Origin: Schmidtea nova
Lineage: Eukaryota
Length of the DNA stretch: 64,000 nt
Reading direction: 5' to 3'
Assembly: GCA_044892505.1 (NCBI GenBank)
Contig: CM097882.1
Span: 138,136,001-138,200,000 of the forward strand
Shown: positions 15,498 through 46,901 of the stretch, piece after piece
Numbering within the stretch: position 1 is the first letter of the stretch
How the letters are laid out: each line of letters starts with the position of its first letter
The notes under the pieces: model-generated
What the model was told of the DNA's origin: nothing
Databases searched by the model: none
What the model saw: only the letters and a program-made list of their open reading frames with translations
Position numbers and translations under genes: made by a program

Positions 15498-16284
15498 CAC
15501 TTTTTTTTTGTATTTTAAAAATTGTTTGCACAAAATGTGCAGTGTTTATTTTGGAGCACTTAGTGCTTTTTCTTTTCTGGCACTAATTGTCTTTTGTTTG
15601 TTAAAAAGAAACAATGAGCTTTTAGTGCTCTTGTTTAAATAAATAAAATAATAATAATAATTTTAAAATAATCAAACATAAAATAAATTCTCAAATAATA
15701 CTAATAAATCAAACATCTGCCCTAAAAATAATGTGGGAAATATTACCTATTGGGTATATATAAATAATAATTATTATAATTTTATTACTATACATCGTTT
15801 TTGGATACTCAAACCCACTGCTGCACAAAAATACTTATCAAAGTAACAAAGTAAAATTCTATTTAAATTTCCAAATTTATTAATAATACCATAAAATAAC
15901 AGCAACATAACTTACATCTAAATCTTATTTTGTGGATACGATGAATAGGAAATATTGCTTTCTGCTTTAATTGGTTGTGGATAATTTGGGGGATAATGAT
16001 AGCCGAACCCGTTGTAAAAATCAGTAAATGTTCCCGTCGAAGGAAATTGAGATTCCGAAGATCTATATCTATACTTGGTTAATATTAAGGAAATGTCCTA
16101 GGTGAATCATTTCTCCGAATTAAACCTCTTCAAAATGGAATTGATAAAAATCACGAGTGATTGGACGAAGGTTTCTACGAACCAAACGAGACGATGGTGT
16201 AAATAAAGCGGAAAATATATTTTTGTAAATAATTGTATGAAATGTAGTGTCAAATTGTATTGATCTATCTGTAAAGAAAACAGT

Positions 16285-16857
16285 ATGAAAAAGCTCAGAA
16301 TACCGATATTCCTATACCTAATAACAATCACCCTACAAAGAGAAGATCTTCAACTCACAGAGAAGGAGCTACGAGCCCTACCCGAGAAAACCTATCAAGA
16401 ACTAGATAAACTAATCAGCGAAGCAACACAAGAAATCACCCAACTTCAACAGATAACATCAGACAACCCAAACGATGAAAAATTTCAACAGGTCCTATAT
16501 GAACATCGAATCAAATTGAAAACAATCAGAAAAACCCTAATAGAAGGTTGAGAACCCATAAAAAGCTTAGCCCAAGCAGAGATAGAATATCAAGAAAAAT
16601 GGATCATCGCAATTATAATAATCCTTGCACTCAGCGTGACCATTATCGCGATCACAATCCTCATAACATCATACCGAGTGAAGATCCTAAAACAAAAACA
16701 AGTCATCCTGAATCGAACAACAATACAAGACATCAGAACCCAAAAGCGAATGAGAAAACACCTAAACCGAATCCAAAGCCACTATGAACTACGAACAATC
16801 AGCGAAAGAACCCCAATCCAATCCAATACCAATCATGAAATCAAAGAGCTTGTGTAA
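16285..16857 (+). pseudogene. Left copy of the 190-aa membrane/coiled-coil ORF, truncated by CGA>TGA
   Basis: Identical to 41517..42089 except T at 16549 versus C at 41781. Confidence 0.85.
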
Positions 16858-17427
16858 AACTGATAAATTACATTCACTTTATGTATGATCCACGTACAAT
16901 TAACAATAATATGACTTTGTGCTTACGTATAAAATCTATCACCTTATGTGATTCTATGTGTACATGTAAATTGACATTTATCTGCTTAATTTTTATGTAT
17001 GATGATATAGGTGTAAATGTATAATTAATTGCTGGACGCAATTTTAGGGGTCCCCGAGTGATGTTGGGCCAGCCAAATAGAGGGAACAGTGAAATAAAAG
17101 TAGATTAATTAAAACAAAAAAGAGAAAAATAAGGTAAAAAGGGGAATATTTATTTATTAAAAGAAAGGAATAATATAGTAAAAATATAGATAAACTAAGT
17201 ACAAGCTATAAATAAAAATAAATGAATTGCTAGATATTAACGGGCCCAGGAGACATCTAAAAACAAATAAAATACAAATAATAATAATTAAAACCAAATA
17301 AAAGTACTTGTTATTGAATAATTGTTTTTGAAACCCGGACCTCCAAGGAAGAATACAATCTAAAAAATAAAAATTAATTAGAATCAAAAACAATAATTAA
17401 AAACCACCATGAAGCTGGCCGAACCTG

Positions 17428-17471
17428 ATTGGTCGGTCTAGACACGACTGATCAGTATAAATACTGATCAG
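17428..17471 (+). promoter_or_regulatory. Putative LTR core promoter: inverted CCAAT (ATTGG) plus TATAAA inside an 11-bp inverted repeat; second copy 42660-42703
   Basis: ATTGG at 17428; CTGATCAGTAT-AA-ATACTGATCAG at 17448-17471; AATAAA ~200 nt downstream. Confidence 0.55.
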
Positions 17472-18439
17472 ATTTTTCATAAAAAGAGAATAGAGACGTT
17501 GTTAGACTGTGTAAAAACTTAGACTTTGTTAGAATATAGATTTTAGACTTGTGACTTTGTTTGAGACAAAAATTTAGACTTGTGTTCAGACTAAAAATTT
17601 ACATTAGATTGCACATTGCCCCGACGACGATCACCGTTTAGACCGATTTTGATCAATAAATTTTCAGAATTCAATTGAGGTATTCTTGGTATATTTACGT
17701 TTATTGTTTGATATCGTTGTATTCATATGTCATTATCATATTATAATTTATTAGTTATCTCATTATGATTTATGTTATATTTAAACTATTTAAACTATCA
17801 TATTAATCTTGCGCCGTTGGGAGCTTTAGGTTCCCAAGGTGTCCGTCCGTGGCGTGGTGCTCGAGGGCTCCACACACGGTAAAGTAATAAATAACAAAAC
17901 ATAATTTTATTAGTGATGGTTGAGATTTGCACATGGGACACCCAACAAATCCGGGGAATTATTTTCTGATCGTTTTGGCTACGGAGGGGACGATAATTTT
18001 TTGATAAAGCTTAAAGATATGAAAGAATTTGTTAACCGGGAGGAGGCACAATTTTTCACCCTCACCACAGCGCAGCTGTTTAATAAACGTCTAATAAACC
18101 TTAGGAAAATTATGTCGACCGCATTTGATACAAAAGAGCGTTTTCGAATAAGCTAGGGATACATGACGTGAGAGAGCTTCCGTTTTGAGGTATCAATATT
18201 TTGAAAATCCAAGCAGACAAATCACCAATTCTTCGACTATAAAATTGATCGTAAACAGATAAATCTAAGTAGATACGAGAGTAATGTATACCGTAACAAG
18301 CAACAGTTTTTTCTTGATTTCAGCTAAGGTCTAAGGGGAAGGCAAATAATAAGGGTATCACGATGAGAGATAACATTTACTATGATTAATTATTGATGTA
18401 AATTGTAACTATTATCAAATTCAGCATCGTTTTGGAATC

Positions 18440-18907
18440 ATGACTAAGCATAGATACACTATCAAAAAACGACAAGAACGAGCCCGAGTTAGCCCATTAA
18501 AGCCGGCTCCTTTCGAGATTTTACAGCAAATCCATCAAAAAATGTGGGCATGGCGCCGAGAGCTTGAAACCGCCTGTCCATTTACATTATGGGACCATCC
18601 ACGGCACCACGTATGGTACCGGGGATGCGCTAGTTGGCCAATTATTCCAGACGAGGAATGCGAATCATGGCACGCCGCCTGGTTCGTCCTGATGTTGGAT
18701 AAGGGAGGATTCCCGAAATGTGTGATATATTGGGGGTTCATTCCAGCCTCTACCTTCAAGGAATTGGGGTTCAAGTTCAATACCGCAATACGACCCCTTC
18801 GAGAAGCTGAGAGGATCCGTTTTCAGCAGGCCTCGTCCAATATCAACACAAATTTGCAAATCAGATCGATATTTTCATATCGAGGAAAAATGACCGAAGA
18901 TGAATAG
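18440..18907 (+). CDS. LTR-encoded Trp-rich protein of unknown function (155 aa)
   Basis: ATG-initiated, preceded by a TTCAG acceptor-like site, identical in both repeats, more GC-balanced than its flanks. Confidence 0.6.
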   Translation: MTKHRYTIKKRQERARVSPLKPAPFEILQQIHQKMWAWRRELETACPFTLWDHPRHHVWYRGCASWPIIPDEECESWHAAWFVLMLDKGGFPKCVIYWGFIPASTFKELGFKFNTAIRPLREAERIRFQQASSNINTNLQIRSIFSYRGKMTEDE

Positions 18908-19228
18908 TTGAATCAATGGCCACATGTTTTTTTTAATTTAATAAATGTTTTAAAAAAGGTCTGAAGTGTCTCATTTTGTTAATAGTGTTGTCATGTAGAT
19001 TTAGTATTCTAGTTGTTATAGTCATTAGGAAATTCATTTAATAATCTCAAACTAGTTCAATAAATCCTTTGAGCCTTCAATAAATAGATAGTTAATTAAT
19101 TTTGCAACAAACTTAATAATTAAAAACATTAGTATGCATCTCGTTTAATGATAGTAAATAATAGACTAAATAAAATAACATTGTTGACAGGTCCTCCAGC
19201 GAATTTATCGTTATAATATTCAGACAAC

Positions 19229-19813
19229 ATGCCGACTTCAGAAAATTCCAAGAAAATCATGGGACAAATCCAAGAGAGGAAGTTGAGGGACCAGCAGCGT
19301 CAGATCAAGCGACTCACGGTCGCCAATGATGAATTGAGAGCGAAGTGGTTCTCACCCGAACAAATGAAGGACCAGTCGAAAAAACTTGAGCGAATGCAGG
19401 AAGCACTGGCCACAACCAAATTGGAACTAGATGCCGTCCAGCGAGAACTCCGAAATTGCCTAAACGCAGTAACAAGAAGTTACATCGACTCCGAATTACG
19501 AGCGCTAATCCGGCCGATCACGGCTCAGCGCTGGATACAATGCACTCACCAAGATGTCGCTTGCGGGACGGAAGAGGGAATCATCATGGCCCCCTCTCTT
19601 ACAACGGAAGATTTGCCTATTTTTCTCAGTGATCCCCCGAGAACAATAGCGCCAGCACCGGTCATAAACCAACAGCTTCGAAAACACCGAATGGGATCGC
19701 GACAGCGTCGTCGTCGCCGAGAATTTGCAAAGCGCCTGGACGAACAAATCCACCACTTGAACTCCTTAACCGAAGCGGAGTTGATTCAGGAGATTAGTCT
19801 GGAATTCGCTTAG
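19229..19813 (+). CDS. LTR-encoded coiled-coil protein with Arg-rich motif (194 aa)
   Basis: ATG-initiated, preceded by TTGTTGACAG, contains RKHRMGSRQRRRRRE, followed by AATAAA. Identical in both repeats. Confidence 0.65.
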   Translation: MPTSENSKKIMGQIQERKLRDQQRQIKRLTVANDELRAKWFSPEQMKDQSKKLERMQEALATTKLELDAVQRELRNCLNAVTRSYIDSELRALIRPITAQRWIQCTHQDVACGTEEGIIMAPSLTTEDLPIFLSDPPRTIAPAPVINQQLRKHRMGSRQRRRRREFAKRLDEQIHHLNSLTEAELIQEISLEFA

Positions 19814-20378
19814 GAAAACATCCATGTAAAATAACAACCTGTTTTTAGTATTTTAATAAAAGTATTTCTGTGTAAATTTTGTCTCTCATCGGGTGATGTT
19901 ACTAAATGAAATAAAATAACAAAAATGAAATCATCGAAATAAAAAAATATCGCCCCGAAATTTTCTCAAACCGACCGTTTATACGCAGGGACTGATTAAT
20001 TACATTGTAGATCAATTAAGGAAAGTCGTTGGGAAAGGCGTGTGATAGAGCATAAGGATATGTAGTACAAAATTTAGTAGAGCGAACATCCATAGAATGA
20101 AAATGCGTAAGACCTTCTATCGGCAGCAAGGACCCGAGGGAAGATAAATGGGGAGTAGTTTTGGCAACAAAGCTCACCTGCCCATCATTTTTCCCCCACC
20201 GTATGCAGTACCAACTTGACTAGTAGGGAATAGTCAAGGGCATACGCGTGTAGTAGTCATGTTATGTATGGTTATGGGCGTGGAATCCCTAGTATACATA
20301 TTCATCAATAGTCGTTCAATTAATGATTAACTATTTATTTGAATTACTTAAAACCCACCCATAACCCCAGCATAAATT

Positions 20379-20396
20379 TGGGGGCTCAGCCGGGAT
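20379..20396 (+). promoter_or_regulatory. Primer-binding site, tRNA-Pro type
   Basis: TGGGGGCTCAGCCGGGAT matches the canonical tRNA-Pro complement TGGGGGCTCGTCCGGGAT at 16/18 positions, 6 nt after the LTR-terminal CA. Confidence 0.85.
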
Positions 20397-20700
20397 CAAC
20401 TTTGTTTTATGCGGAAAAGGTGAACCCAATGACAACAGAGAAATTTAAAGTCAGAATTTTGTGAGTAGAAATAGTAACCGAAAGAGTAATCGAGATAAAA
20501 GTGAGTTGCGTGGAAATAGATAATTACAGACAGGGAATTAAAACAAATTAGTAGATAAATTGAACAAATGCATTCATAAATAACAGGTCGGGACGACAAT
20601 TTACCGAAACACGGGGGGAGGCTATAAAACTGTCAGAAACGAAAGACAGTACTACTTTTCGAATAATATTAACACAGTAATTAAATAAATTATCTAGGAA

Positions 20701-21162
20701 ATGGAGGAAAAACTGAAAGAAATCGAGGAATTTTTCAACACCGAGAACGATACATTTGAGACAGTCTGCGAAAAAATAACCCGAATAAGAGCATCCGAAT
20801 ATGAGGAACCTACGACACAAACGGAGGAAACAACTGAGTTAATAAAAATCATAGAGAAAGTAAATAAACTCGATATAAATACGCGATATAAATGGTACAA
20901 AGCACGATTAGAGGATGCCGAGTTGAATATCAGATGCCGACATATAGAACAGCAGTTAAGTCTAACATATAACCGATGGATGTCGCAAGGGGTCGAGGCA
21001 GCAAAACAATATAAACAATGTTACATATGCGAAGACAGTGAAATCCAAATAATGTTTTTGCCATGTGGACATTTTCGATTCTGTAAAAACTGTGCGAATA
21101 AGTGTGATGAGTGCCCCATGTGCAGTTTCTCTGTAGCTGATAGAATTGTAGTTTATTTATAA
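20701..21162 (+). CDS. Coiled-coil plus C-terminal IAP-type RING finger (putative E3 ligase) upstream of gag
   Basis: CYICEDSEIQIMFLPCGHFRFCKNCANKCDECPMC...IVVYL: IAP-like C3HC4 RING at the extreme C-terminus. Confidence 0.85.
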   Translation: MEEKLKEIEEFFNTENDTFETVCEKITRIRASEYEEPTTQTEETTELIKIIEKVNKLDINTRYKWYKARLEDAELNIRCRHIEQQLSLTYNRWMSQGVEAAKQYKQCYICEDSEIQIMFLPCGHFRFCKNCANKCDECPMCSFSVADRIVVYL

Positions 21163-21639
21163 TAAATATTTAGAGTGTGTTAATATATTGTATCGAATGA
21201 CAAAGTCAGGGGAGCAATCAACAATGTTAATTAATTTTTGAGCTACTGTCAAGTAGTCCGTTAAGCACCCATTGGGAGGTACCAGTTGATCAACCCACTC
21301 GGGGTATATAGAAAGGGGCCAATCGCAAATGTTGGAAAGCTTTTGTGATGTGATTGATCACCACATCCCGCATTAGTAGACCAACGCGATCTTTTTGTAT
21401 ATTTTGGTTGGGGAGAGAAATAGGGAAAACCCTGATGAGGTAAGATGCGCGCAGAGAAAATAATAAAAATTGAATTATGACTGATCAGCGAAAGAATTAG
21501 TAATAAAACAAAGAATCGAGGAATTATAGAGAAAAATAAGAGGTGCATAATCAGCTCGCATGAAATTGAGAGAACTCAGCTGAGAAATTGTAGTCGCTAG
21601 CGAAGTTAAGAATTACGATTAACCGGTTAAGGAAAATTT

Positions 21640-21852
21640 ATTAGAATTTGTCCCTTGAAACAAAGGGTTATCAGCGGTTTGTCCCTTGAAACAAAGGGTT
21701 ATTAGAATTTGTCCCTTGAAACAAAGGGTTATTAGAATTTGTCCCTTGAAACAAAGGGTTATCAGCGGTTTGTCCCTTGAAACAAAGGGTTATTAGAATT
21801 TGTCCCTTGAAACAAAGGGTTATCAGCGGTTTGTCCCTTGAAACAAAGGGTT
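21640..21852 (+). repeat. Leader tandem array 1: 7 x GTCCCTTGAAACAAAGGGTT with two alternating spacers (30/31-bp units)
   Basis: Spacers ATTAGAATTT (A) and ATCAGCGGTTT (B) in the order A,B,A,A,B,A,B. Confidence 0.95.
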
Positions 21853-22130
21853 GAGGCCAAAGAGCCATATTGAATGACCTAGCTAGGCGTTATTGAGAGA
21901 TACGATTTAAGGCCAATAGAGCCATTTGAGATAATTGAGATATGATTTAAGGCCAATAGAGCCATTTGAGATAATTGAGATATGATTTAAGGCCAATAGA
22001 GCCATTTGAGATAATTGAGATATGAATTTAAGGCCAAAAGAGCCATTTGAGATAGTTGAGATATGAATTTGAGGCCATAAGAGCCATTTGAGATAATTGA
22101 TATTAATTAGAGGCCAAAGGAGCCAATAGG
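21853..22130 (+). repeat. Leader tandem array 2: ~40-bp unit AAGGCCAATAGAGCCATTTGAGATAATTGAGATATGATTT
   Basis: GGCC cores at 21855, 21911, 21951, 21991, 22032, 22073 and 22112. Confidence 0.9.
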
Positions 22131-22148
22131 GATATCCGGATATATAGT

Positions 22149-22359
22149 AACGGAGGGAATATAGGCCCAGGGTTACAATTGTTGAGTAGCAACGGAGGGA
22201 ATATAGGCCCAGGGTTGCAATTATTTAAAATTAAAGGAAGATAGTAACGGAGGGAATATAAGCCCAGGGTTACAATCGTTTGAGTAGCAACGGAGGGAAT
22301 ATAGGCCCAGGGTTGCAAGTGATAAGAAATAACAACAGAGGGAATATAGGCCCAGAGTT
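22149..22359 (+). repeat. Leader tandem array 3: 5 x AACGGAGGGAATATAGGCCCAGGGTT with variable spacers
   Basis: Copies at 22149, 22191, 22246, 22289 and 22334; higher-order period ~97 bp. Confidence 0.9.
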
Positions 22360-22909
22360 GTGATCGTCGACGATAATGAGAATAGTGCGCACCAGGAATT
22401 GAGAAATGCGAGTAAAGCTGATTATGCGACCTAAAATAATGCATGCAAGTAGAATCGAGAAATAGGAGCTGACCGGAAAGACCGGCAGAATTAATAATTA
22501 GAGGCTAGCAGAGAGAAAGATAAAGAGATAATAAAATAATAATCGAGTCAAATGACTCAGGGAATTAGAGCGTTCGAACGACAAATAAATTGGGAGACCG
22601 CGGGAAAAATAATTGATGTATTTTAATAACCGATAGATAATTGTTATGACTAAATAGATAATTGTGACTAGTATATAGATAATTTAAATAGACTTAAATA
22701 AAGGGGAATCTGGGAATGGGGAAAAATAATAGAAACCCAGTAATGAGAAGTCCCGTAAAAAGGGAATAAAAGCGCAACGATAACAATAGAGTATCGTTGA
22801 AGTGACATTTGTATTTTAGATAAATCAATCAAACCAAACCAAGCAACCAAGGAAGAAAAGAATCGGAACACGATAAGACAGGAAAATTGAGTATACAAAA
22901 GTAATCCCG

Positions 22910-28162: not shown

Positions 28163-28240
28163 ATAGAACCGTACATCATCAGTAAAGGAGGATGGGAAAC
28201 ATTCACAAAAACGAACCAAAAGAAAACCCAAGCCAAAAAT

Positions 28241-37200: not shown

Positions 37201-38299
37201 AACAACTATAATGTTAGAGTTAACCGGGATAGAACCGGACGTCAAAGGCGTATGCTGGAAGAAGCAGGAAAAGAAAACAAACCAGAATACACCGCCGCAA
37301 TGTCGAACAAACAGAGGAACAACCACAATACAGATAGAAGGGTTAGAAAGTAATCAAACGTACGAAATATGCCTGATCAGGAAGAGCGACAAAATAACAG
37401 TAAATGAACTGGAATGCAAAATATATAAAACACCCAGCAGAACAAGAATTGGAAAGACAACGCGAAAAAGCAGAAGACAACGGAACAAAGGAAAAGCGAG
37501 GTATACCACTACTTTTGAACCTAATGGACAACAGAAAAACCAAGAAATACAAATAAGAACCGAAAAGAATACTACAGCAACTCTTATACTATGGAGAATA
37601 GACAATAAAACGTTAGAAATATGTTGGGCAGTAGTTCAGGAACAAAAAGAAAGACAGCCACGATCCTGCGAAAACGTAAAAGGAAAAGAAGAAATGAGTA
37701 TCAAAAATCTGAAATTTAATAGAGAATACGAGATATGTGCGGTAGAAAAGACGGACATATTGGGAAATCAGCAGGAAAGATGCGAAACGTACTACACACC
37801 GGTAAACTCAACGTCCAAAGGGAAAGTGAGAAAACTCGAATTTAAAGAATTAAGTCAGACAACGAAACAAATGGACGCAGAACAAGTAGTAATAGACCCT
37901 TACGCAAGATGGACGCCGGAAGAAGTAATTAAAGAAGTTAAAAGAAAACAACAAGAACGAGAACAACTACTAAATAAACTAAAGGGACAATACGGACCAA
38001 TGATTAACCAGAGTGAAATTACGAAGATGGACGTAAACAAACAAGTTAGAGAACTAATTGGTCTAGGAATACTAGCAGCAACTATTCCAGTAATAACAGT
38101 ATTATTAATAATATGGATATATGATGTATTCAACAAGAAACCAATAACACATTGGCCAGATATAAAAATTATGAACTACAGAATAGAATTACCGGAAGAA
38201 GTACAGAAAGAATTTCAAAGGAGGACGAAAGGCAAGGAATTTTGGAGACAAATAGAAGATGAGGAGCGATACGAAGGAAAGACAGTGATGGTGATATAG
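28241..38299 (+). CDS. pol: 3352-aa polyprotein: Env-like glycoprotein, protease, RT, RNase H, integrase, ankyrin repeats, FN3-like type I membrane protein
   Basis: MIDTGAN (30758), YIDD (31973), LLATDASG, HDGKLGGH...CLTC, MDVIGPLP/TDQGT/NGQTERFN, GKGPY, ankyrin motifs, and several hydrophobic segments. Confidence 0.95.
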   Translation: MKRKFEEILGELEKEKSGTGNGKSSLNLSSIIMMMLIWMISTDGATAFEVFDCDQMALGEKYSLRGTEQCKDATPTELKTLKKRQLYHVYQEAELIRTMVRECKVYKTRFAFYCGHRHYSAIVMPGTERESVMLQGEDCEKLFKHGEVETRDRVKIRGKTGVILQQTYYVAGAITGGEGYCQGATYPIFGVAATNLVVIDTYTVELKTYEAFFDPTTGEMKTLPMCKIESNTCQTGMSTLTYQIRGKECQLQLLKEAEFDEIQGKTFQEEEEDEAARGKILQDTVRGEKKIETRTQEKQIKMRNTPTVLITSDADIGMRFVKGKTALKCGVAMLETNYPGIFVSKQEVPSAKRKVHTNDVKLHLYMNNKMDFLFHRGQASLQKVYYDLINNDCILNREILKTKLAVAITNPDCAMPLLPLREGHFGRVVGEVMYVYICKKTNAKVATMTKLQPGQCTNELEIEYKGKVRYVQPVTRIINPVSFEPNPFNCSNAYGPLYQKPDGNWVMFPSRTEVPAPREFELMQLSKGRKFKDVDVSNMGFYSAKDLEAARQNILFPARREAVLSSIVTITGGTNYQGGPNYELLLSPAHFKKATENMMKAMWGRFLIFGQMMAGILGVILIIQIIRVIITQMLACFDIYKREKKVNWKLVVGFLPFLAKTMVLHGHSKDIHRIKRLLKILAKMKGTDEEVGRKFKKIMNNEQARQQLKKERKGLWERMKGYRTQDDSSDDDDDDNEGGQVFKNQVPQYVEKNPAEMWKCYAPPPTMYQEPTPGMRQNTMQMMPMTNIYPMIPEDYRTRRCRSVDPQGDSHTIAVMSSNTGPVLTTTIEINGREIEAMIDTGANISAIDIKWIPQEQRRDIERTNVHVIACSKEVVEVAGRWWVKIKHQNTEIETYVAVIPALSVPCIIGTDLMPALFKEIVIDLGTMRLKDRTGQICAIEAKVTSSKQIIVPARREKICFVKIDPTIEGDMIFEPSKRFEKRKSLPMARGLVSANDNGEIPINVVNFDEEDKIIYENERLGKLTPMIDIEIPIKEGVKEEEPTWNIDSQLLNEDQKKQLERLLIEYKDIFAASDLDLGTCDVTLHTIPLTDETPIALRPYKLAEAQKSVAEAEVQKMLDAEVIEPSCSPWQFPVVMVKKKDGTQRFCIDYRRLNAVTKRDTYPLPDINEMLLTLQGAAYFTSLDLKSGYWQIKMKEEDKEKTAFTIGRDLYQFRKMPFGLTNAPASFQRCMNFVTHGIKQCMVYIDDLLIYSSTFEQHIQDIRDVFVRLRQWKLKLKPSKCDWAKEKVTFLGHIVSAKGKEPDPRNIDKVKECPVPKTITQIQEFLGLCGYYRKFIKDYAGIAKPIQELVKKDVSFIWGSEQQTAFETLRDKLITAPILVHPDFKKPFLLATDASGYAAGAVLGQYDDEGKERVIGYYSRTFKKHEKNYSVTEREALAIILAIKHFKYLLWGHVICITTDHQPLVWLGQHKETSSRLMRWAMQLQEYSPDIKFKSGKANANADCMSRLTFPELTDPEVQRICIMIAEDLDFSELKKDQQEDKELRPIIEFLSSRNMDVFKDNAELKEHMRKYQHRYTIEKGWLLIQDGEKRLMCLPSNRRKEIITQYHDGKLGGHMSDKKTLDRMRQKYYWPTMDEDVKEWIKNCLTCATRKDSGKKWKNPLKPMPIPAEPMTTIAMDVIGPLPESLNWNQYILVITDYLTKFPEAFAMPDQKAKTVARILVEEICCRYGTPKQILTDQGTNFMSEILDEVTNYFRIAKLRTSPYHPQTNGQTERFNGTLIRMLSNYVSKHQTDWDEYIKLCLMAYRMSIHAATKLSPFQLMYGRECNMPIDLEYQPPLSQYMEEDDYVTKFKERMQEIWKTAELNIKFYQESYKDLHDQKKNVKTNDLKPGDWVMIETPEIIPGTVKKLQRPGKGPYEVIYKKENNVKVKLVNRPLIRPIYVNTCRCKKVPKTITTAPEERIITRSQTARMNMLRATNESTEAENNQQEKRNKEIVLKAREIMGKWHVRDDILRDIQLIISDYARGLPTKPVISELLEKIPEILSLQDIGGQPALHNAIKWGEVERVKEFLKIAKETNQHLGFGNSEQETPLMVAAIYKSDKAIIDLLINADFNWTERDRENKTVLNHAIWSSNQIMLKQIIEKATWEIDELIKGDIIKEAIKIGNCKTIRKLIKWKRSENDTWVLNINEVYSEGQNALLQFLLKFVCDQKTLLTLLDRGNIIMSKNKEECKFKSEKEALFRNIREWCTKSLTKTITYKDISNFQDKYKTVEEEYDKLIDILNHPERCKQFLCRKERESKRKFTPLFSAEVPYQERLDAIQDKAKKLLPEFENSKHTLEILGAIVEKIHAYAEGTYNENDMMLIKREMPVTFLLTKNGVLPIHRALRAGKDRRVVEIARLMQDCGSDMNMKDKKGDTLMIFAARANTKTRVLQELYEAGAGLMGRTNKDSSILDVALLTHNWEVINFIKTITNQEEIEYLTRIVKKASVHSMMHNAELTEAILNWMNPNTNEPAFRINEFMEQGQNLYIKCALIINKWPKIIDIFMRRKDLRFTNNPKETERTDKWKELMKTYLNNWIKAKKEILDCKLTDKEIPKQAVTQEYEASILTTITYEKMIEAINVEDDIFNDQRGGDNTGNDDDSTRENPEDHELSDEEDSEEKGRDTEKNDKKNEFGKQRNNNYKNKNEAKRTSYKQTINPFFKPELLLLTVIMTLISPTQGMICEERTTIQIGNAKGIERVCWSKKDKISGQNSPMDCRISEYEQEIIEIDDLELDTWYRMCTVRKPKDPRSHKTIACANYLTPKITITVQQTSKGDYAVGKCGKTETQGTKNKKPQTIDRRTTPTIRITIDRPEARVTTNETKRVTYQTELLCLALILTMLKRLEEGIDIDTMAVTEMNDTQNTNPKCWARSNEEIGVSEIKTSRKRKTNKVTKISEVKADRTYELCLLEKERHKKGTTICKTFQPGETIKFIRRGRKNIRTKRRTTIMLELTGIEPDVKGVCWKKQEKKTNQNTPPQCRTNRGTTTIQIEGLESNQTYEICLIRKSDKITVNELECKIYKTPSRTRIGKTTRKSRRQRNKGKARYTTTFEPNGQQKNQEIQIRTEKNTTATLILWRIDNKTLEICWAVVQEQKERQPRSCENVKGKEEMSIKNLKFNREYEICAVEKTDILGNQQERCETYYTPVNSTSKGKVRKLEFKELSQTTKQMDAEQVVIDPYARWTPEEVIKEVKRKQQEREQLLNKLKGQYGPMINQSEITKMDVNKQVRELIGLGILAATIPVITVLLIIWIYDVFNKKPITHWPDIKIMNYRIELPEEVQKEFQRRTKGKEFWRQIEDEERYEGKTVMVI
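28331..30231 (+). other. Env-like domain: chuvirus/Monjiviricetes-type fusion glycoprotein with signal-like and transmembrane segments
   Basis: IIMMMLIWMI...ATA|FEVFDC; YSL...C; ECKV...R...YCG..HYS; AG...G.G.C.G..Y; CG...ETNYP; LYMNNKMDF; C...REILKTKL; GEVMYVYIC; CTNEL; ILFPARREAVL; TM FLIFGQMMAGILGVILIIQII. Motif and Cys order recognised by eye. Confidence 0.75.
34390..35660 (+). other. Ankyrin-repeat region downstream of integrase
   Basis: GQPALHNAIKWGE, ETPLMVAAIY, KTVLNHAIW, VLPIHRALRAG, GDTLMIFAARAN, SSILDVALLTHN. Confidence 0.8.
36353..38130 (+). other. C-terminal membrane protein: signal-like segment, four Cys-containing FN3-like repeats, TM anchor
   Basis: PELLLLTVIMTLISPTQG; four repeats of the form xCW...(C)...I..L....Y.(I/L/M)C...C; TM LIGLGILAATIPVITVLLIIWIY. 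Confidence 0.65.
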
Positions 38300-38424
38300 G
38301 AGGCGGGATATGACTGTAAATAATAGTGTAAATAACAATGCATTACCGTAATAGTATGGGTATCGATATTATAAAAATATAAAAAGAGAAATCGAGAAAA
38401 CGATTAATGTATATAATTTAGAAA

Positions 38425-38781
38425 ATGAACGAACAGGAAGAAATAGCAGAAACTACTATGGCTATGCGATGGAAAGCCCAGTGTGACATGTTAATACGAA
38501 CAATCAACTCACTACAAAATCAGTTAATTGAGAAACAGAATTTGTTATCCGAAAGTTATAATAATAGTTTTGAACAACTCCACAGAATCGAGGAGCAACA
38601 GAGATTGATAACGCAACTTACCAGAGAGAATCAAGTGATGAGCGACATAAATCAGAGACAAGCAATAGAGATAGACCGTTTAACAATGGGGGAGATAGAA
38701 GAAGCAGAGGATGGATGGACAAATTGGGCAATAAACAGGTCGGAAAATGACCCAGAACCAGATTCAACAAACGAGCCGTAG
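38425..38781 (+). CDS. Small coiled-coil accessory protein (118 aa)
   Basis: ATG-initiated with heptad pattern; TTTAG acceptor-like site 3 nt before the ATG. Confidence 0.6.
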   Translation: MNEQEEIAETTMAMRWKAQCDMLIRTINSLQNQLIEKQNLLSESYNNSFEQLHRIEEQQRLITQLTRENQVMSDINQRQAIEIDRLTMGEIEEAEDGWTNWAINRSENDPEPDSTNEP

Positions 38782-38872
38782 ATAAATAAAGCGAAAAATT
38801 GTAAATATGTAAAAACAAAAACAAGAAAAATCAAAAAATAGATAACAAATCAAGTGTATATATCATTGTAGA

Positions 38873-40256
38873 ATGAATACAGAAGGAAAAGCCGAAGAGC
38901 GGATAATCGAAATTTTGAGAGCCGAGAACAGGAAATGGAGTCAGAGACTCACTTGTGTAAATTGTAAAAACATAATATTGAAACCAAGACAAACCCTATG
39001 CGGATGCAGAGTATGTACCAAATGCATACACGAGTTAAGTATGAAAAGACCACCAGAATGTCCAGAATGCAAAGAAGGACAAATAAAATTCGAAGAAACC
39101 GGACCAGATAGAGCAACTCAGAGAGAAATCATGAACACGAAAACCGAATGTATAAATCAACCATGTATATGGCAAGGACAAATACGCGATCTCGAGAACC
39201 ATCTGGAGAACTGCGAAGAGAAGAGAACTGAATGTAACAAATGCCAACAAAAAATAACTATAAAGAATAAAGAGCAGCACAAAGATGAATGTAAAGAAGA
39301 GGAAAGTCTATGCGAATATTGTGGAACTCGAGAAACGAGGAGAAAGATCGAAGAAGAACACCTGAATGTAAAAGAGGAGAAAGTATGTAGACAATATGTA
39401 GGAATATGTTCAAACGAATGCGAGATAACGGTAGAAGTAAAATTACAAGAACATTGGAAAGTGTGCACGGAGAAACCAAGGGAATGTCCTTATAACAAAC
39501 AGGGATGTATGGAGAAAAGAACGCAAAAAAACCATGAAACAACATCTGGAGGAAGCATTGCTAAAGCATGCGGAAATGACAAACGAAGCAACAAAAGAAA
39601 CCGAACAAACAATCAAAAAATTAGAAAGAGAAATAGAGTCACACAAGATAATGGTAAACCTACTGTTGGAAACCAGAGAGCAATTCGAACTAACACGAGA
39701 AAAGATGGAGGAAAAGATAAAAGCTATCGAAGAATTGGCTAAAGGAATGAAAATCCAGTACAACAAACTCACCCAGGATACCGAGGAAAAGTTGCCAATC
39801 GCACCCTATGTGTGGAAAGTGACAGATTTTAGAGACAAATTAACAGAGGCCAGAAATATGACGAAAACAGCAGTAATAAGCCCACCATTTTATTTATGGA
39901 GAAACGGAGCTAAAGTGAGATTGAAGCTATACCCAAATGGAGACGGAAGAGGACGAGGAACACATGTGTCAATATTTTTCTCGCTATGTAAAAGAGAATA
40001 CGACGACCTAGTAGAATGGCCCTTGAAAGTAGGAGTCATTATAAGAATCAGAAGTGTAGCAAAACCAGTGGAAAAATTCTTTGAGACAGAGAAACATGCG
40101 AGTACGAGCGAGAAACCAACCACAGAATGTGGATTAGCAGCGGGAGAACCGATGTTTATAACGAAAGAAAGCTTATGGGAACGATTATATGCAGACACCC
40201 TATACATAGAAATGGAAAGGAATGAGAAAGCGGATAGAAAAGGATGGTTGACGTAA
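38873..40256 (+). CDS. TRAF: Intronless TRAF-family protein (RING, TRAF Zn fingers, coiled coil, MATH) with one frameshift in an A7 run
   Basis: CVNC...CGCRVCTKC...CPEC RING; ECINQPCIWQG...LENHLENC Zn fingers; YVWKVTDF...SPPFY...KLYPNGDGRGRGTHVSIFF...YDDLVEWP MATH. Removing one A from 39525-39531 joins the two ORFs as EKRTQKTMKQHLEE. Confidence 0.9.
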
Positions 40257-40372
40257 CAAGAGAAGTGATCATGTAAATAATATGTACAGTTAAATACCCA
40301 AAAATTATTATATAAACAAAAATAACTGATATATAAACCGATTAAAAATTTTTTTTCTCTGTAATTATAGCA

Positions 40373-41434
40373 ATGGGAAATATCGAAGTATGCTTACAGG
40401 AAATTACGATGCATCAAGCAGAAGCGATTAGCGATCATCTAGAACAGATCGAAATATGGGTCAATGCATATTATAGAAAGCAAGAGGAGATAGAGAGACA
40501 AGCCGAATTATTAAAAGAAGCGGAAAGATCAAGTCAAAGAAGTCGAGAAAAAATAGAAGAAGTATACAAAATGCTAAAACAACAAAAGGAATATTACCAG
40601 GGAATGATGAAAGAGCGACGAGAGGAAAGAGACAGACAGCAGATGGAAGCTGAACACAAGATGTATTCGATTACAGAACAAGCAAGATACTGGAAGAAAG
40701 AAGCGAAAGAATCTTACGAAAAAGCTAGAGAAATAATAGAAAGGACAGCTTATAGTGATGACTGGAAATTATATAAAGAGATCGACGAATTAAAAGACGA
40801 ATTAGAGAAAAAAATCAACCAGGAAGTGTTAAATAAAAGATGGAATACAAAAAGACAGCAATTTATCCGCGAACAAGCAAAGAAAATTAAAGGACTAACC
40901 TATCAAGTTCAAAGAATGGGAGAAGAACTAGCTAATCAAGAACAACTGAAAACTATGCTCACCGGAATATGGAATCAGAAAGAAGAAGAGATGAAGAGAG
41001 ATATAAATGGTTATCAAGGAGTGATTACCCAGAAGAAAATAGAGCTAAAAAGAACCAGAGAAAGGTTAAAGGAAGAGAAACAAAGTTATGAGGAAAATTT
41101 AACGAATTTGATGAAAGAAAACGAAGAATTGAAACAGAAACGAGTAACAGTATCAGTAATACCCAAAGAAGCAAGTATAACGGCAGCCGTAACAAAAATG
41201 ATGAAGGAAGACGAACAAAAGACAAAAGTAATCGAATTAGAGAAGCAAATAGAAACATTAACAGAACAAGCAAATTACCTAGAATATTTGCTGGACGAGG
41301 AGATCCAGATATCTCACATGTATCGAGATGAAGTCGAAATGTGGAGGAGCAGGGTTGTTTGGATACCACTCCCCACGAACCAGGTAGAACCTCAGGACGA
41401 AGGTTTCTACGAACCAAACGAGACGATGGTGTAA
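40373..41434 (+). CDS. Long coiled-coil (SMC/myosin-tail-like composition) accessory protein (353 aa)
   Basis: E/K/Q/R-rich heptads; polypyrimidine tract plus TAG acceptor-like site 2 nt before the ATG. Confidence 0.7.
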   Translation: MGNIEVCLQEITMHQAEAISDHLEQIEIWVNAYYRKQEEIERQAELLKEAERSSQRSREKIEEVYKMLKQQKEYYQGMMKERREERDRQQMEAEHKMYSITEQARYWKKEAKESYEKAREIIERTAYSDDWKLYKEIDELKDELEKKINQEVLNKRWNTKRQQFIREQAKKIKGLTYQVQRMGEELANQEQLKTMLTGIWNQKEEEMKRDINGYQGVITQKKIELKRTRERLKEEKQSYEENLTNLMKENEELKQKRVTVSVIPKEASITAAVTKMMKEDEQKTKVIELEKQIETLTEQANYLEYLLDEEIQISHMYRDEVEMWRSRVVWIPLPTNQVEPQDEGFYEPNETMV

Positions 41435-41516
41435 ATAAAGCGGAAAATATATTTTTGTAAATAATTGTATGAAATGTAGTGTCAAATTGTATTGATCTAT
41501 CTGTAAAGAAAACAGT

Positions 41517-42089
41517 ATGAAAAAGCTCAGAATACCGATATTCCTATACCTAATAACAATCACCCTACAAAGAGAAGATCTTCAACTCACAGAGAAGGAG
41601 CTACGAGCCCTACCCGAGAAAACCTATCAAGAACTAGATAAACTAATCAGCGAAGCAACACAAGAAATCACCCAACTTCAACAGATAACATCAGACAACC
41701 CAAACGATGAAAAATTTCAACAGGTCCTATATGAACATCGAATCAAATTGAAAACAATCAGAAAAACCCTAATAGAAGGTCGAGAACCCATAAAAAGCTT
41801 AGCCCAAGCAGAGATAGAATATCAAGAAAAATGGATCATCGCAATTATAATAATCCTTGCACTCAGCGTGACCATTATCGCGATCACAATCCTCATAACA
41901 TCATACCGAGTGAAGATCCTAAAACAAAAACAAGTCATCCTGAATCGAACAACAATACAAGACATCAGAACCCAAAAGCGAATGAGAAAACACCTAAACC
42001 GAATCCAAAGCCACTATGAACTACGAACAATCAGCGAAAGAACCCCAATCCAATCCAATACCAATCATGAAATCAAAGAGCTTGTGTAA
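41517..42089 (+). CDS. Small membrane protein: N-terminal hydrophobic segment, coiled coil, TM, basic tail (190 aa)
   Basis: MKKLRIPIFLYLITITLQ; TM WIIAIIIILALSVTIIAITILI; CAG 1 nt before the ATG. Confidence 0.75.
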   Translation: MKKLRIPIFLYLITITLQREDLQLTEKELRALPEKTYQELDKLISEATQEITQLQQITSDNPNDEKFQQVLYEHRIKLKTIRKTLIEGREPIKSLAQAEIEYQEKWIIAIIIILALSVTIIAITILITSYRVKILKQKQVILNRTTIQDIRTQKRMRKHLNRIQSHYELRTISERTPIQSNTNHEIKELV

Positions 42090-43671
42090 AACTGATAAAT
42101 TACATTCACTTTATGTATGATCCACGTACAATTAACAATAATATGACTTTGTGCTTACGTATAAAATCTATCACCTTATGTGATTCTATGTGTACATGTA
42201 AATTGACATTTATCTGCTTAATTTTTATGTATGATGATATAGGTGTAAATGTATAATTAATTGCTGGACGCAATTTTAGGGGTCCCCGAGTGATGTTGGG
42301 CCAGCCAAATAGAGGGAACAGTGAAATAAAAGTAGATTAATTAAAACAAAAAAGAGAAAAATAAGGTAAAAAGGGGAATATTTATTTATTAAAAGAAAGG
42401 AATAATATAGTAAAAATATAGATAAACTAAGTACAAGCTATAAATAAAAATAAATGAATTGCTAGATATTAACGGGCCCAGGAGACATCTAAAAACAAAT
42501 AAAATACAAATAATAATAATTAAAACCAAATAAAAGTACTTGTTATTGAATAATTGTTTTTGAAACCCGGACCTCCAAGGAAGAATACAATCTAAAAAAT
42601 AAAAATTAATTAGAATCAAAAACAATAATTAAAAACCACCATGAAGCTGGCCGAACCTGATTGGTCGGTCTAGACACGACTGATCAGTATAAATACTGAT
42701 CAGATTTTTCATAAAAAGAGAATAGAGACGTTGTTAGACTGTGTAAAAACTTAGACTTTGTTAGAATATAGATTTTAGACTTGTGACTTTGTTTGAGACA
42801 AAAATTTAGACTTGTGTTCAGACTAAAAATTTACATTAGATTGCACATTGCCCCGACGACGATCACCGTTTAGACCGATTTTGATCAATAAATTTTCAGA
42901 ATTCAATTGAGGTATTCTTGGTATATTTACGTTTATTGTTTGATATCGTTGTATTCATATGTCATTATCATATTATAATTTATTAGTTATCTCATTATGA
43001 TTTATGTTATATTTAAACTATTTAAACTATCATATTAATCTTGCGCCGTTGGGAGCTTTAGGTTCCCAAGGTGTCCGTCCGTGGCGTGGTGCTCGAGGGC
43101 TCCACACACGGTAAAGTAATAAATAACAAAACATAATTTTATTAGTGATGGTTGAGATTTGCACATGGGACACCCAACAAATCCGGGGAATTATTTTCTG
43201 ATCGTTTTGGCTACGGAGGGGACGATAATTTTTTGATAAAGCTTAAAGATATGAAAGAATTTGTTAACCGGGAGGAGGCACAATTTTTCACCCTCACCAC
43301 AGCGCAGCTGTTTAATAAACGTCTAATAAACCTTAGGAAAATTATGTCGACCGCATTTGATACAAAAGAGCGTTTTCGAATAAGCTAGGGATACATGACG
43401 TGAGAGAGCTTCCGTTTTGAGGTATCAATATTTTGAAAATCCAAGCAGACAAATCACCAATTCTTCGACTATAAAATTGATCGTAAACAGATAAATCTAA
43501 GTAGATACGAGAGTAATGTATACCGTAACAAGCAACAGTTTTTTCTTGATTTCAGCTAAGGTCTAAGGGGAAGGCAAATAATAAGGGTATCACGATGAGA
43601 GATAACATTTACTATGATTAATTATTGATGTAAATTGTAACTATTATCAAATTCAGCATCGTTTTGGAATC

Positions 43672-44139
43672 ATGACTAAGCATAGATACACTATCAAAAA
43701 ACGACAAGAACGAGCCCGAGTTAGCCCATTAAAGCCGGCTCCTTTCGAGATTTTACAGCAAATCCATCAAAAAATGTGGGCATGGCGCCGAGAGCTTGAA
43801 ACCGCCTGTCCATTTACATTATGGGACCATCCACGGCACCACGTATGGTACCGGGGATGCGCTAGTTGGCCAATTATTCCAGACGAGGAATGCGAATCAT
43901 GGCACGCCGCCTGGTTCGTCCTGATGTTGGATAAGGGAGGATTCCCGAAATGTGTGATATATTGGGGGTTCATTCCAGCCTCTACCTTCAAGGAATTGGG
44001 GTTCAAGTTCAATACCGCAATACGACCCCTTCGAGAAGCTGAGAGGATCCGTTTTCAGCAGGCCTCGTCCAATATCAACACAAATTTGCAAATCAGATCG
44101 ATATTTTCATATCGAGGAAAAATGACCGAAGATGAATAG
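43672..44139 (+). CDS. Second copy of LTR-encoded 155-aa protein
   Basis: Identical to 18440..18907. Confidence 0.6.
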   Translation: MTKHRYTIKKRQERARVSPLKPAPFEILQQIHQKMWAWRRELETACPFTLWDHPRHHVWYRGCASWPIIPDEECESWHAAWFVLMLDKGGFPKCVIYWGFIPASTFKELGFKFNTAIRPLREAERIRFQQASSNINTNLQIRSIFSYRGKMTEDE

Positions 44140-44460
44140 TTGAATCAATGGCCACATGTTTTTTTTAATTTAATAAATGTTTTAAAAAAGGTCTGAAGTG
44201 TCTCATTTTGTTAATAGTGTTGTCATGTAGATTTAGTATTCTAGTTGTTATAGTCATTAGGAAATTCATTTAATAATCTCAAACTAGTTCAATAAATCCT
44301 TTGAGCCTTCAATAAATAGATAGTTAATTAATTTTGCAACAAACTTAATAATTAAAAACATTAGTATGCATCTCGTTTAATGATAGTAAATAATAGACTA
44401 AATAAAATAACATTGTTGACAGGTCCTCCAGCGAATTTATCGTTATAATATTCAGACAAC

Positions 44461-45045
44461 ATGCCGACTTCAGAAAATTCCAAGAAAATCATGGGACAAA
44501 TCCAAGAGAGGAAGTTGAGGGACCAGCAGCGTCAGATCAAGCGACTCACGGTCGCCAATGATGAATTGAGAGCGAAGTGGTTCTCACCCGAACAAATGAA
44601 GGACCAGTCGAAAAAACTTGAGCGAATGCAGGAAGCACTGGCCACAACCAAATTGGAACTAGATGCCGTCCAGCGAGAACTCCGAAATTGCCTAAACGCA
44701 GTAACAAGAAGTTACATCGACTCCGAATTACGAGCGCTAATCCGGCCGATCACGGCTCAGCGCTGGATACAATGCACTCACCAAGATGTCGCTTGCGGGA
44801 CGGAAGAGGGAATCATCATGGCCCCCTCTCTTACAACGGAAGATTTGCCTATTTTTCTCAGTGATCCCCCGAGAACAATAGCGCCAGCACCGGTCATAAA
44901 CCAACAGCTTCGAAAACACCGAATGGGATCGCGACAGCGTCGTCGTCGCCGAGAATTTGCAAAGCGCCTGGACGAACAAATCCACCACTTGAACTCCTTA
45001 ACCGAAGCGGAGTTGATTCAGGAGATTAGTCTGGAATTCGCTTAG
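44461..45045 (+). CDS. Second copy of LTR-encoded 194-aa Arg-rich coiled-coil protein
   Basis: Identical to 19229..19813. Confidence 0.65.
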   Translation: MPTSENSKKIMGQIQERKLRDQQRQIKRLTVANDELRAKWFSPEQMKDQSKKLERMQEALATTKLELDAVQRELRNCLNAVTRSYIDSELRALIRPITAQRWIQCTHQDVACGTEEGIIMAPSLTTEDLPIFLSDPPRTIAPAPVINQQLRKHRMGSRQRRRRREFAKRLDEQIHHLNSLTEAELIQEISLEFA

Positions 45046-45684
45046 GAAAACATCCATGTAAAATAACAACCTGTTTTTAGTATTTTAATAAAAGTATTTC
45101 TGTGTAAATTTTGTCTCTCATCGGGTGATGTTACTAAATGAAATAAAATAACAAAAATGAAATCATCGAAATAAAAAAATATCGCCCCGAAATTTTCTCA
45201 AACCGACCGTTTATACGCAGGGACTGATTAATTACATTGTAGATCAATTAAGGAAAGTCGTTAAGAAAGGCGTGTGATAGAGCATAAGGATATGTAGTAC
45301 AAAATTTAGTAGAGCGAACATCCATAGAATGAAAATGCGTAAGACCTTCTATCGGCAGCAAGGACCCGAGGGAAGATAAATGGGGAGTAGTTTTGGCAAC
45401 AAAGCTCACCTGCCCATCATTTTTCCCCCACCGTATGCAGTACCAACTTGACTAGTAGGGAATAGTCAAGGGCATACGCGTGTAGTAGTCATGTTATGTA
45501 TGGTTATGGGCGTGGAATCCCTAGTATACATATTCATCAATAGTCGTTCAATTAATGATTAACTATTTATTTGAATTACTTAAAACCCACCCATAACCCC
45601 AGCATTATTTATCTGTAATGGTTTATCAATTTGCGTTTGATATGCACACAAAGGATACACAGCAGTGTAAGGATAAAGTCCGAT

Positions 45685-46258: not shown

Positions 46259-46901
46259 AGTCCGATCATCTTTGCTGCAGTTAGCACACTGCTCGAGACT
46301 GTTTATATGGATTAAAGGTGAAATTGACAAAAATATAATTAAAATAATAAAGCACAAATGGTACTCAACTAATATTATGATAAAATGTTACAAACCTTTG
46401 TAAAGATTTCTCTAAATTAAAACTGTTTCTAAACGACATTAATTACTTACTTAGTGGCAATGATGCATTTGCTTTACAGACTCCATTAACCATTGAAAAT
46501 TAAGCTTAATATTTGATAATTGAATTATAATTTCTCGTTATGCGTCCAATTTGCGGCGATATCTTGTTTTTTGTTTGGATTCAAAATTGTAAGTGGCTGC
46601 TACTGGGAAAGGTTAAAGCATTCCCATTTTAGTTAATTTTGGATACTCATCAAATACACTTCCCAAAAAGTTGCCAATCGAAATCTCATCAATCATGACT
46701 TTTAATTTTTAATTTGAAGAAATTTATATTAAATATAATGTCAGAGTGTAATGCAGACATTAAGTCGACCATGGAACTATTATCTATTATGGATCAGTGA
46801 CATCATGAGAGTTTCCAAATGGTTACCAGAATGAAGGCAATCTGGCACTTTAGCTGCTTTTAGGAGAAACCCAAATCAGGATGACTTTGGCATTAAAGCT
46901 T

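Follow-up and report, generated by a model that had tools for sequence, protein, structure and literature searches.

The window, a 64,000-bp stretch of the Schmidtea nova genome, contains a giant LTR element, and all features described below are located on its plus strand. Two direct repeats of 4,210 bp (16163-20372 and 41395-45604) differ by three substitutions (16549/41781, 20031/45263, and 20032/45264), lack indels, and span 29,442 bp. These values, which were given in the first-pass annotation, hold, but not as the dimensions of the LTRs and of the element. The true LTRs have a length of 3,311 bp and TG...CA termini, are located at 17062-20372 (5' LTR) and 42294-45604 (3' LTR), and differ by two mismatches. 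A 4.2-kb LTR is rejected because all 15 other genomic copies start at the equivalent of position 17062, each with a 4-bp target duplication. The element proper comprises 28,543 bp, i.e., 3.3-kb LTRs and an interior of 21.9 kb. An 18-mer resembling a primer-binding site (20379-20396), presumably that for tRNA-Pro, is shared without change by the sister family and the 15 other copies, and the leader contains tandem-repeat blocks (21638-22380) with periods of about 30/61/91, 40, and 43 nt.

The 899 bp ahead of the 5' LTR (16163-17061) duplicate bases 41395-42293 from the 3' interior of the same element, with one mismatch to that region versus 13-27 to the 15 other copies. The window copy is devoid of a target duplication, and its unique left junction has a microhomology of about 3 bp to a truncated host repeat. 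As this junction occurs once in the genome, a subfamily with an extended left end is rejected. The continuation of the host repeat was not found within 150 kb upstream or 50 kb downstream, and a search for remains of a left tandem unit in 20 adjacent 10-kb stretches revealed only two short LTR-like pieces. Contigs from four runs of one study did not bridge the left junction, a gap that is uninformative; these runs are possibly the assembly's own source. As the most likely origin, we lean towards an LTR-sharing tandem, of which the window copy is the right half and the left unit was largely deleted; such a tandem was seen in one of 10 copies of a sister family. Aberrant reverse transcription is a possible origin, and an assembly error an unlikely one. 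The identity of the repeats in this copy may date the local duplication rather than the insertion. The window copy, or at least its left end, could also be a chimera assembled from collapsed repeats, but this is highly improbable. The single occurrence of the junction, the absent target duplication, and the missing continuation of the host repeat would be in agreement with a chimera, but the extra 899 bp fit the copy's own 3' region and none of the other sampled copies, and the microhomology is compatible with a real deletion. As the architecture was established from the 15 other copies and from two sister families, an error in the window copy would not alter the family-level result.

Read from its first ATG, the polyprotein gene (23336-38299) has 4,987 codons; from stop to stop, it has 5,140. 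It is interrupted in the window copy, and gag and env-pol had been annotated as two genes; however, the stop at 28160-28162 is private to this copy and all 15 others read through, which also rejects a programmed read-through. All 15 other copies have a frame that continues from gag into env, in eight of them intact to the end of the polyprotein, and frames of at least 5,000 codons hold 33 of 88 close matches (counted by hand). The window copy itself is incapable of making the full polyprotein. The domain order within the one frame is Gag, Bcl-2-like domain, Env, protease, reverse transcriptase (RT), RNase H, integrase, ankyrin repeats, and a tail of fibronectin type III (FN3) units. The Gag region (23489-24199) combines a Retrotrans_gag match under the cut-off (E 1.7e-4) with CCHC knuckles, three of which are present in the 15 other copies, while the second one has lost a cysteine in the window copy. 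Three candidate ubiquitin-like segments (24797-25045, 26132-26371, and 26963-27196) have no match in the window; ubiquitin matches were obtained for the relatives P0001 and P0007. The Bcl-2-like domain (27797-28231; omega 0.21), which contains the private stop, has a profile match to Bcl-xL (E 2.5e-4), and its motif is separated from the Env signal by 45 residues in the window, 58 in P0005, and 64 in P0007. The block from 30716 to 33544 has the Gypsy order of protease (30716-30988), RT (31652-32128), RNase H (32315-32704), and integrase (33029-33544). A linker between protease and RT (31088-31375) is conserved, as a segment of 80-95 aa, in seven relatives, and has no match, dUTPase having been looked for. 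This order, a Ty3-like RT (best match Ty3 Gag-Pol, E 3e-119), and the TG...CA LTRs, primer site, and short target duplication of all 15 other copies place the element in the Ty3/Gypsy group (Metaviridae). Two clusters of ankyrin repeats (34409-35743; omega 0.32) follow.

The env part (28322-30130) encodes the ectodomain of a Monjiviricetes/chuvirus-type fusion glycoprotein (PF24664, E 8.9e-68) between a signal-like segment (28322-28360) and a membrane anchor (30074-30130). A PDB sequence search yielded no match. Comparison of 15 copies revealed 105 silent versus 14 replacement variants and an omega of 0.04, which does not differ from the 0.07 of protease-RT (Fisher p 0.23). In contrast, omega was 1.07-1.93 in four non-coding controls and 2.4 and 4.4 in shifted frames of Env. 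Choosing the 15 copies by their best RT matches favors young ones, and the p-values assume independent variants. Env is under purifying selection as strong as that on RT. Relatives with 54-59% identity in RT still share 36-40% identity along nearly the full Env. The constraint reveals a needed protein, not infection, and budding into the ER or the correct release of Pol could be alternative reasons for it. Env contains only one glycosylation sequon, which is unusual for a luminal protein.

Behind the integrase, the frame encodes a second predicted membrane protein (36359-38299) with a signal-like segment (36359-36397), four FN3-type units (36404-36658, 36887-37147, 37178-37438, and 37541-37804; omega 0.39), an anchor (38057-38113), and a short tail; signal-like or anchor segments thus occur at four places of the polyprotein. 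According to its predicted model (pLDDT 82.6), unit 3 adopts a beta-sandwich of FN3 topology, with a Z-score of 8.1 against an FNIII domain (rmsd 2.7 over 76 residues), and FN3 domains occupy most of the 50 rows of a structure search. The remaining units were assigned by alignment only (17-34% identity, eight invariant columns), and the model of the whole tail is poor (pLDDT 39). An Atlas match of the tail to fn3 (0.87) is a lead only. Pfam did not call fn3 in the window tail or in eight relatives, a PDB sequence search with the tail yielded E 0.98 at best, and no homologs were found among 3,075 candidates or 1.84 billion representatives. The seven database relatives that extend past the integrase all end with a hydrophobic segment, a domain of 280-410 aa with cysteines and glycosylation sequons, and an anchor. 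The window tail has no sequence match to their tails, and with a profile of 10 relatives' units it did not score above shuffled sequences. It is strongly basic (19% K+R), unusual for a luminal protein. A third hydrophobic segment is located between units 1 and 2 and is, in the sister families, the stronger segment; therefore, the topology of the polyprotein may differ from that proposed below.

ATG-initiated ORFs of at least 100 aa are 13 in number on the plus strand (up to 3,352 aa) versus six on the minus strand (at most 152 aa). All long ORFs are indeed on the sense strand, as annotated previously, but the "eight or more" accessory ORFs are reduced to seven distinct genes, because halves of the TRAF gene or LTR duplicates had been counted. 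The first (20701-21162; omega 0.24) encodes 153 aa with a C-terminal C3HC4 RING, which we take to be of the IAP type; RING was the only match, and no BIR domain was found in the 10 ORFs scanned. ORF118 (38425-38781; omega 0.23) has no family assignment. The TRAF-like gene (38873-40256), with zinc fingers, a coiled coil, and a MATH domain, is split into two frames in the window copy and had been taken for two ORFs. It is a single 469-codon frame in 13 of the 15 other copies, and a programmed frameshift is rejected on the same grounds. ORF353 (40373-41434; omega 0.24), a charged helical protein, also has no family, and ORF190 (41517-42089; omega 0.32) is a small predicted membrane protein with an anchor at residues 107-125. 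Both LTRs carry ORF155 (18440-18907 and 43672-44139; omega 0.14) and ORF194 (19229-19813 and 44461-45045; omega 0.16); searches with ORF155 gave no explanation for it. The seven genes are mostly constrained. A YAG is located 0-6 nt upstream of six of the seven accessory ATGs; among 624 other ATGs, the proportion is 16.5% (p 1e-4, with a distance window picked post hoc).

An env piece had 88 genomic matches with at least 95% identity, and the LTR pairs of the 15 other copies have only 0-4 mismatches. These data support a very young, currently expanding, many-copy family of giant env-bearing Gypsy elements; the youth ascribed to the element before is true for the family, but the window copy is damaged. 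The RT tree, which has an unstable outgroup and includes no named Burro, unites three families of the S. nova genome (100/100). Young copies from which RT, RNase H, and integrase have disappeared in frame, with gag and env kept, number about 40 or more in one sister family: 20 of 24 sampled copies are pol-less, and all 40 scored matches cross the deletion junction. These copies retain one open frame of about 4,100 codons with gag, env, protease, ankyrins, and tail as well as all cargo. Their LTR pairs have 0-5 differences, target duplications are visible in six of eight, and env has an omega of 0.07-0.09. As pol-less and full copies are intermixed in the env tree, the env of the pol-less copies may be purified via recombination with helpers. 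In the window's own family, none of six odd-length copies is pol-less; one is devoid of most of the tail.

We consider it probable that this expanding Burro-type family has a polyprotein that is threaded twice through the ER membrane, and that it builds enveloped particles for cell-to-cell transfer. Judged from the hydrophobic segments, the N-terminal Gag/Bcl-2 part would remain in the cytosol. Cleavage by signal peptidase would leave the Env signal segment as its C-terminal anchor, similar to tail-anchored cellular Bcl-2 proteins. The fusion protein would enter the lumen, the Env anchor would bring the chain back to the cytosol, and the element's protease would free the cytosolic enzymes. The second signal would begin a type I FN3 protein, which likely serves as attachment or decoy protein. 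RING, TRAF, ORF118, ORF353, ORF190, and the LTR ORFs are likely expressed from spliced RNAs, and the accessory genes likely keep the producing cell alive. As the pol-less sister copies show, the element can obtain RT and integrase in trans. From the sequences we infer that the family is possibly infectious, for which the omega of Env and the retention of env in pol-less copies are indirect support.

A more far-reaching reading, which we put forward tentatively, is that Burro-type elements are a lineage of infectious, complex retroviruses of invertebrates with a two-part envelope cut from one membrane-threaded polyprotein (a conserved chuvirus-type fusion protein and exchangeable FN3 attachment proteins), spliced anti-death genes, and co-packaged pol-less, env-keeping genomes that outnumber their helpers. 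Somewhat doubtful is a purely intracellular retrotransposon with the same polyprotein and topology, the particles of which bud into the ER or remain in the cell, with Env as the scaffold for positioning Gag and releasing Pol, and FN3 as host-directed cargo. In its favor, a misfolded Env within the polyprotein would damage Pol in cis, Env is poor in sequons, the tails vary widely among relatives and are far less constrained than Env, and planarian stem cells can transmit new insertions without infection. However, a scaffold has no obvious need for RT-level constraint across a whole ectodomain, or for its conservation along nearly the full length in relatives this distant in RT, and the pol-less copies retain env in frame.

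The host could also maintain the element as a mutualist, with RING, Bcl-2-like, and TRAF proteins kept mainly for the protection of its stem cells and the pol-less copies as favored cargo carriers. The retention of all cargo in these copies and the constraint on the accessory ORFs would fit, and a functional anti-apoptotic role of the Burro1 B-IAP is cited in PMC13465017. Nevertheless, this is very unlikely: the constraint is found in dozens of dispersed copies whose LTRs are identical, which indicates selection in the course of element replication and not at host loci, the most constrained part is Env and not the cargo, and the RING gene has no BIR match. For a proviral nature of Burro elements, the copies provide indirect evidence at the population level: the family is inserting at present, its Env is constrained to the level of RT, and RT and integrase are dispensable in cis with gag and env staying in frame. 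A second surface protein behind the integrase, with its layout retained in distant relatives, would provide an LTR element with a fusion-plus-attachment envelope and with a polyprotein topology reminiscent of enveloped RNA viruses. This specifies which proteins, cleavage points, and RNAs to search for, in an experimentally tractable group of animals.

Env-bearing Gypsy elements that infect neighboring cells are well known from insects, i.e., the errantiviruses gypsy and ZAM, which express env from a spliced RNA. Unlike the S. nova family, they have a size of about 7-8 kb and a separate 3' env of the baculovirus F type, and they are not known to have a second surface protein. Helper-dependent defective elements are exemplified by mouse ETn/MusD, copies of which without RT and integrase are amplified by a helper; in contrast to these, the pol-less sister copies keep their one long open frame, which runs from gag to the tail. 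The Anakin elements of mosquitoes also have a captured chuvirus-type glycoprotein and near-identical LTRs, and have been proposed to be retroviruses, but they are BEL/Pao elements of normal size, and cargo of the Bcl-2, TRAF, ankyrin, or FN3 kind is not named in the abstract (PMC7642597).

The closest counterparts are Burro1-4/GYPSM1 of Schmidtea mediterranea and a Burro-like element of Dugesia tigrina, also of the giant Gypsy type, whose proviral nature was left as a hypothesis (PMC6431247). None of 12 protein matches carries the name Burro; the element is of the Burro type by its layout. It is shorter (28.5 kb versus more than 30 kb, with interiors of "up to 25 kb" given for Burro), its RING gene has no BIR, which Burro has in B-IAP, and TRAF is a separate downstream gene, while it is inside the polyprotein in Burro1 and upstream in the D. 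tigrina element. Burro elements are also characterized by a ubiquitin/SUMO-like domain ahead of the Bcl-2-like one and a dUTPase-like segment between protease and RT; the window has the three candidate segments for the former and the conserved linker in the place of the latter, none of them with a match. The 5,140 codons from stop to stop equal the length given for ORF1 of D. tigrina, but the knuckle number and the TRAF position differ, and the agreement is probably due to chance. Section 7 of PMC6431247 already reports the env between gag and pol as well as MATH/TRAF, ankyrin, and Bcl-2 modules, which removes much of the novelty claimed earlier. The signal-FN3x4-anchor tail, the LTR-encoded ORFs, the splice-acceptor-like starts, the selection on Env, and the pol-less env-keeping subfamily are unmentioned in that section. 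No description of the module behind the integrase, of such a subfamily, or of an Env-selection analysis was found in the literature searched, which did not comprise the primary Burro reports. Both families are giant Gypsy elements with tandem repeats, MATH/TRAF and RING cargo, and a single polyprotein of about 5,000 aa (about 4,900-5,100 aa for the gag-to-pol frame) with Gag, a Bcl-2-like domain, protease-RT-RNase H-integrase, and ankyrins. The three CCHC knuckles are shared with the S. mediterranea Burro, and in both families an env related to mononegavirus-type fusion proteins lies in frame between the Bcl-2-like domain and the protease.

The repeat pair of the first-pass annotation (16163-20372 and 41395-45604, 4,210 bp, three substitutions, no indels) was recovered unchanged, as were the location of the long ORFs on the + strand and the Gypsy identity, with Ty3 as the best solved relative. 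However, these repeats do not bound the element, as had been claimed for a length of about 29 kb. Fifteen other copies in the same genome were compared, chosen from the 40 best RT matches as those with a correctly spaced 3' match, which favours young copies. In all of them the 5' LTR starts at the equivalent of 17062, and therefore the LTR has 3,311 bp (17062-20372 and 42294-45604), the element 28,543 bp (17062-45604, +), and the window copy carries a surplus of 899 bases on its left. All 15 have LTRs ending in CA and a 4-bp target duplication, their LTRs are 3.24-3.34 kb long, except one of 2.44 kb, and their LTR pairs differ at 0-4 sites, in six copies at none. No target duplication was found at the ends of the window copy, and no long polypurine tract before its 3' LTR (42274-42293), where a brief conserved sequence including a G4/C4 mini-palindrome occurs in all 15 copies.

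The window also contains a small LTR-bounded element (469-5728, -), whose ORFs carry an HSP90 fragment, a ubiquitin domain (E 2e-26) and a BEL/Pao-type gag (DUF1759) and gave no pol match, a near-perfect palindrome (6739-7125, 193-nt arms, 1 nt between them), a high-copy MITE-like insert of 575 bp with 7-8 bp of duplicated target 80 bp right of the giant element (45685-46259), a Tc1/mariner-type transposase (50692-51648, -), and a Gypsy element of ordinary size (52984-59425, -).

The extra bases correspond to the window copy's own 3' internal sequence with one mismatch, compared to 13-27 for the other copies. Because they were copied from the window copy itself, its repeat identity, from which a very young element had been deduced, may date the left-end event and not the insertion; the youth of the family, evident from the 15 LTR pairs, is independent of it. 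We lean towards a tandem made from the window copy and later cut back by deletion. An LTR-sharing tandem, with a further internal region after the copy, was present in one of ten sister-family copies checked, and the extra bases meet the host repeat at about 3 bp of microhomology. Mis-primed reverse transcription is a possible but weaker explanation, and an assembly error is improbable. The left junction occurs only once in the genome, and the continuation of the host repeat was found neither in the right flank nor in 20 neighbouring 10-kb stretches.

The stop at 28160-28162 is private to the window copy: the frame reads through in all 15 others and is unbroken to its end in eight. The TRAF gene, split in the window copy, forms a single frame of 469 codons in 13 of the 15. 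Among 150 scored matches to a piece of env, at least 88 had at least 95% identity, and at least 33 of these, counted by hand, lie in frames of at least 5,000 codons, most commonly 5,140; all these counts are lower bounds. The polyprotein comprises, in this order, Gag with CCHC knuckles, three predicted candidate ubiquitin-like segments, a Bcl-2-like part (profile match to Bcl-xL, E 2.5e-4), Env (Monjiviricetes fusion glycoprotein, E 8.9e-68), protease, RT, RNase H, integrase, and ankyrins.

For omega, the distinct variants by which the 15 copies depart from the window were counted, using four-fold sites for the mutation spectrum, and a simpler variant count was run too; the variants are not independent, so the p-values are rough. 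Env had 0.04 (105 silent, 14 replacement), RNase H-integrase 0.05, protease-RT 0.07, the Gag core 0.09, the Bcl-2-like part 0.21, the ankyrins 0.32, and the FN3 units 0.39. The accessory genes had 0.14 and 0.16 (LTR ORFs), 0.19 (MATH), 0.23 (ORF118), 0.24 (RING and ORF353), and 0.32 (ORF190); the N-terminal part of TRAF (0.63) was not significant (p 0.32), and four non-coding control stretches had 1.07-1.93. The Env protein is required by an element that now replicates. Among the new evidence this constraint speaks most strongly for particles, while it falls short of proving infection. A YAG precedes six of the seven accessory ATGs by 0-6 nt, a distance picked after looking, versus 16.5% of 624 other ATGs (p 1e-4). 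It is kept in both sister families before RING, ORF118 and ORF353, and absent before the TRAF ATG picked there. Judged from sequence, the accessory genes are likely expressed from spliced RNAs.

Hydropathy revealed signal-like and anchor segments flanking Env, and a second signal-like segment (36359-36397) and anchor (38057-38113) behind the integrase, between which lie four related units with eight invariant columns. The predicted fold of unit 3 (pLDDT 82.6) matches FNIII domains (Z 8.1, rmsd 2.7 over 76 residues), FN3 takes up most rows of its structure match list, and its best Foldseek E is 8e-3; the whole tail gave 1e-4, but from a poor model. At the level of the model, one tail unit thus has the FN3 fold. 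Seven of nine long database relatives (Env 36-40% identical) continue past the integrase, and all seven end in a hydrophobic segment, a 280-410-aa domain and an anchor. BLAST connects six of these tails, in which an FN3-type motif can be seen by eye; the window's tail matched none of them, and Pfam called no fn3 in the tails. Hence, the layout of the tail is conserved, its sequence is not. The proposed novelty of the FN3 module holds for the literature searched, which had no description of the tail and did not extend to Grohme 2018 and Lee 2026. In a copy of a third, older family (L106:7161-10000 plus L107:1-2081) the FN3-anchor tail apparently occurs twice in tandem, with two anchors, and a window-family copy (L150) lacks about 2.2 kb, most of the tail. 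Several database relatives (P0001-P0008) have two or three aspartic-protease-like domains, some behind the integrase, and place ankyrins between Env and protease.

The sister family has the same gene order and an env 76-77% identical. Of 24 sampled copies (15 picked for a frame of about 4,100 codons, two for one above 5,100, and seven others), one and the same in-frame loss, about 3.0 kb long, is found in 20; it removes RT, RNase H and integrase (for example at L095:2380-2420) and retains gag, env, protease including its DTG motif, ankyrins, tail, and accessory genes. The loss was present in five of these seven others, and its junction was spanned by the 40 best scored matches, one of which stops 10 bases short; about 40 or more young copies carry it. 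The LTR pairs of eight pol-less copies differ at 0-5 sites (in one copy over an alignment of just 760 bp) and six of the eight have a visible 4-bp duplication; therefore, pol-less copies have been mobilised in trans. Pol-less and full copies are mixed on the env tree, the pattern that co-packaging with template switching would give, and this mixing confounds the low env omega of pol-less copies (0.07-0.09). The LTR-sharing tandem noted above is such a pol-less copy (L139/L140), with a second internal region beyond its 3' LTR.

Beyond the anatomy, youth, constraint, modelled FN3 fold of one unit and trans-mobilised pol-less copies established here, enveloped spread of the element seems reasonably probable. 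The polyprotein would adopt a membrane topology and be cleaved, the Env signal, which lies 45-64 residues from the Bcl-2-like part in three sequences, might double as the anchor of that part, and the accessory cargo would be anti-death. What weighs against enveloped spread is that Env has few sequons and that the tail is basic and contains an extra hydrophobic segment; intracellular budding instead is rather unlikely.

The headline architecture has been known since 2019. The Burro description (PMC6431247) reports a planarian ORF1 of 4,873-5,140 aa, an in-frame env that is placed between Bcl-2 and protease and hits mononegavirus fusion proteins, and MATH/TRAF, BIR, ankyrin, ubiquitin-like and dUTPase-like parts, and it already raises the provirus hypothesis; the claimed novelty of an env-first Pol and of TRAF is thereby lost. 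In the parts available of other papers, an anti-apoptotic function is cited for Burro1 B-IAP (PMC13465017), Burro1 RNA is reported upon loss of SMEDWI-2 (PMC8532177), Burro is merely named (PMC11410931, PMC13238120), and chuvirus glycoproteins are described in Pao elements (PMC7642597). The window element works like Burro and shares most listed features, but neither the size above 30 kb nor BIR, and is therefore filed as a Burro-type variant, by comparison of descriptions and not of sequences. The element type by itself suggests that the host is probably a planarian. To the known Burro picture the analysis adds a second membrane protein, selection data, and a pol-less subfamily, which together make the Burro provirus question testable.
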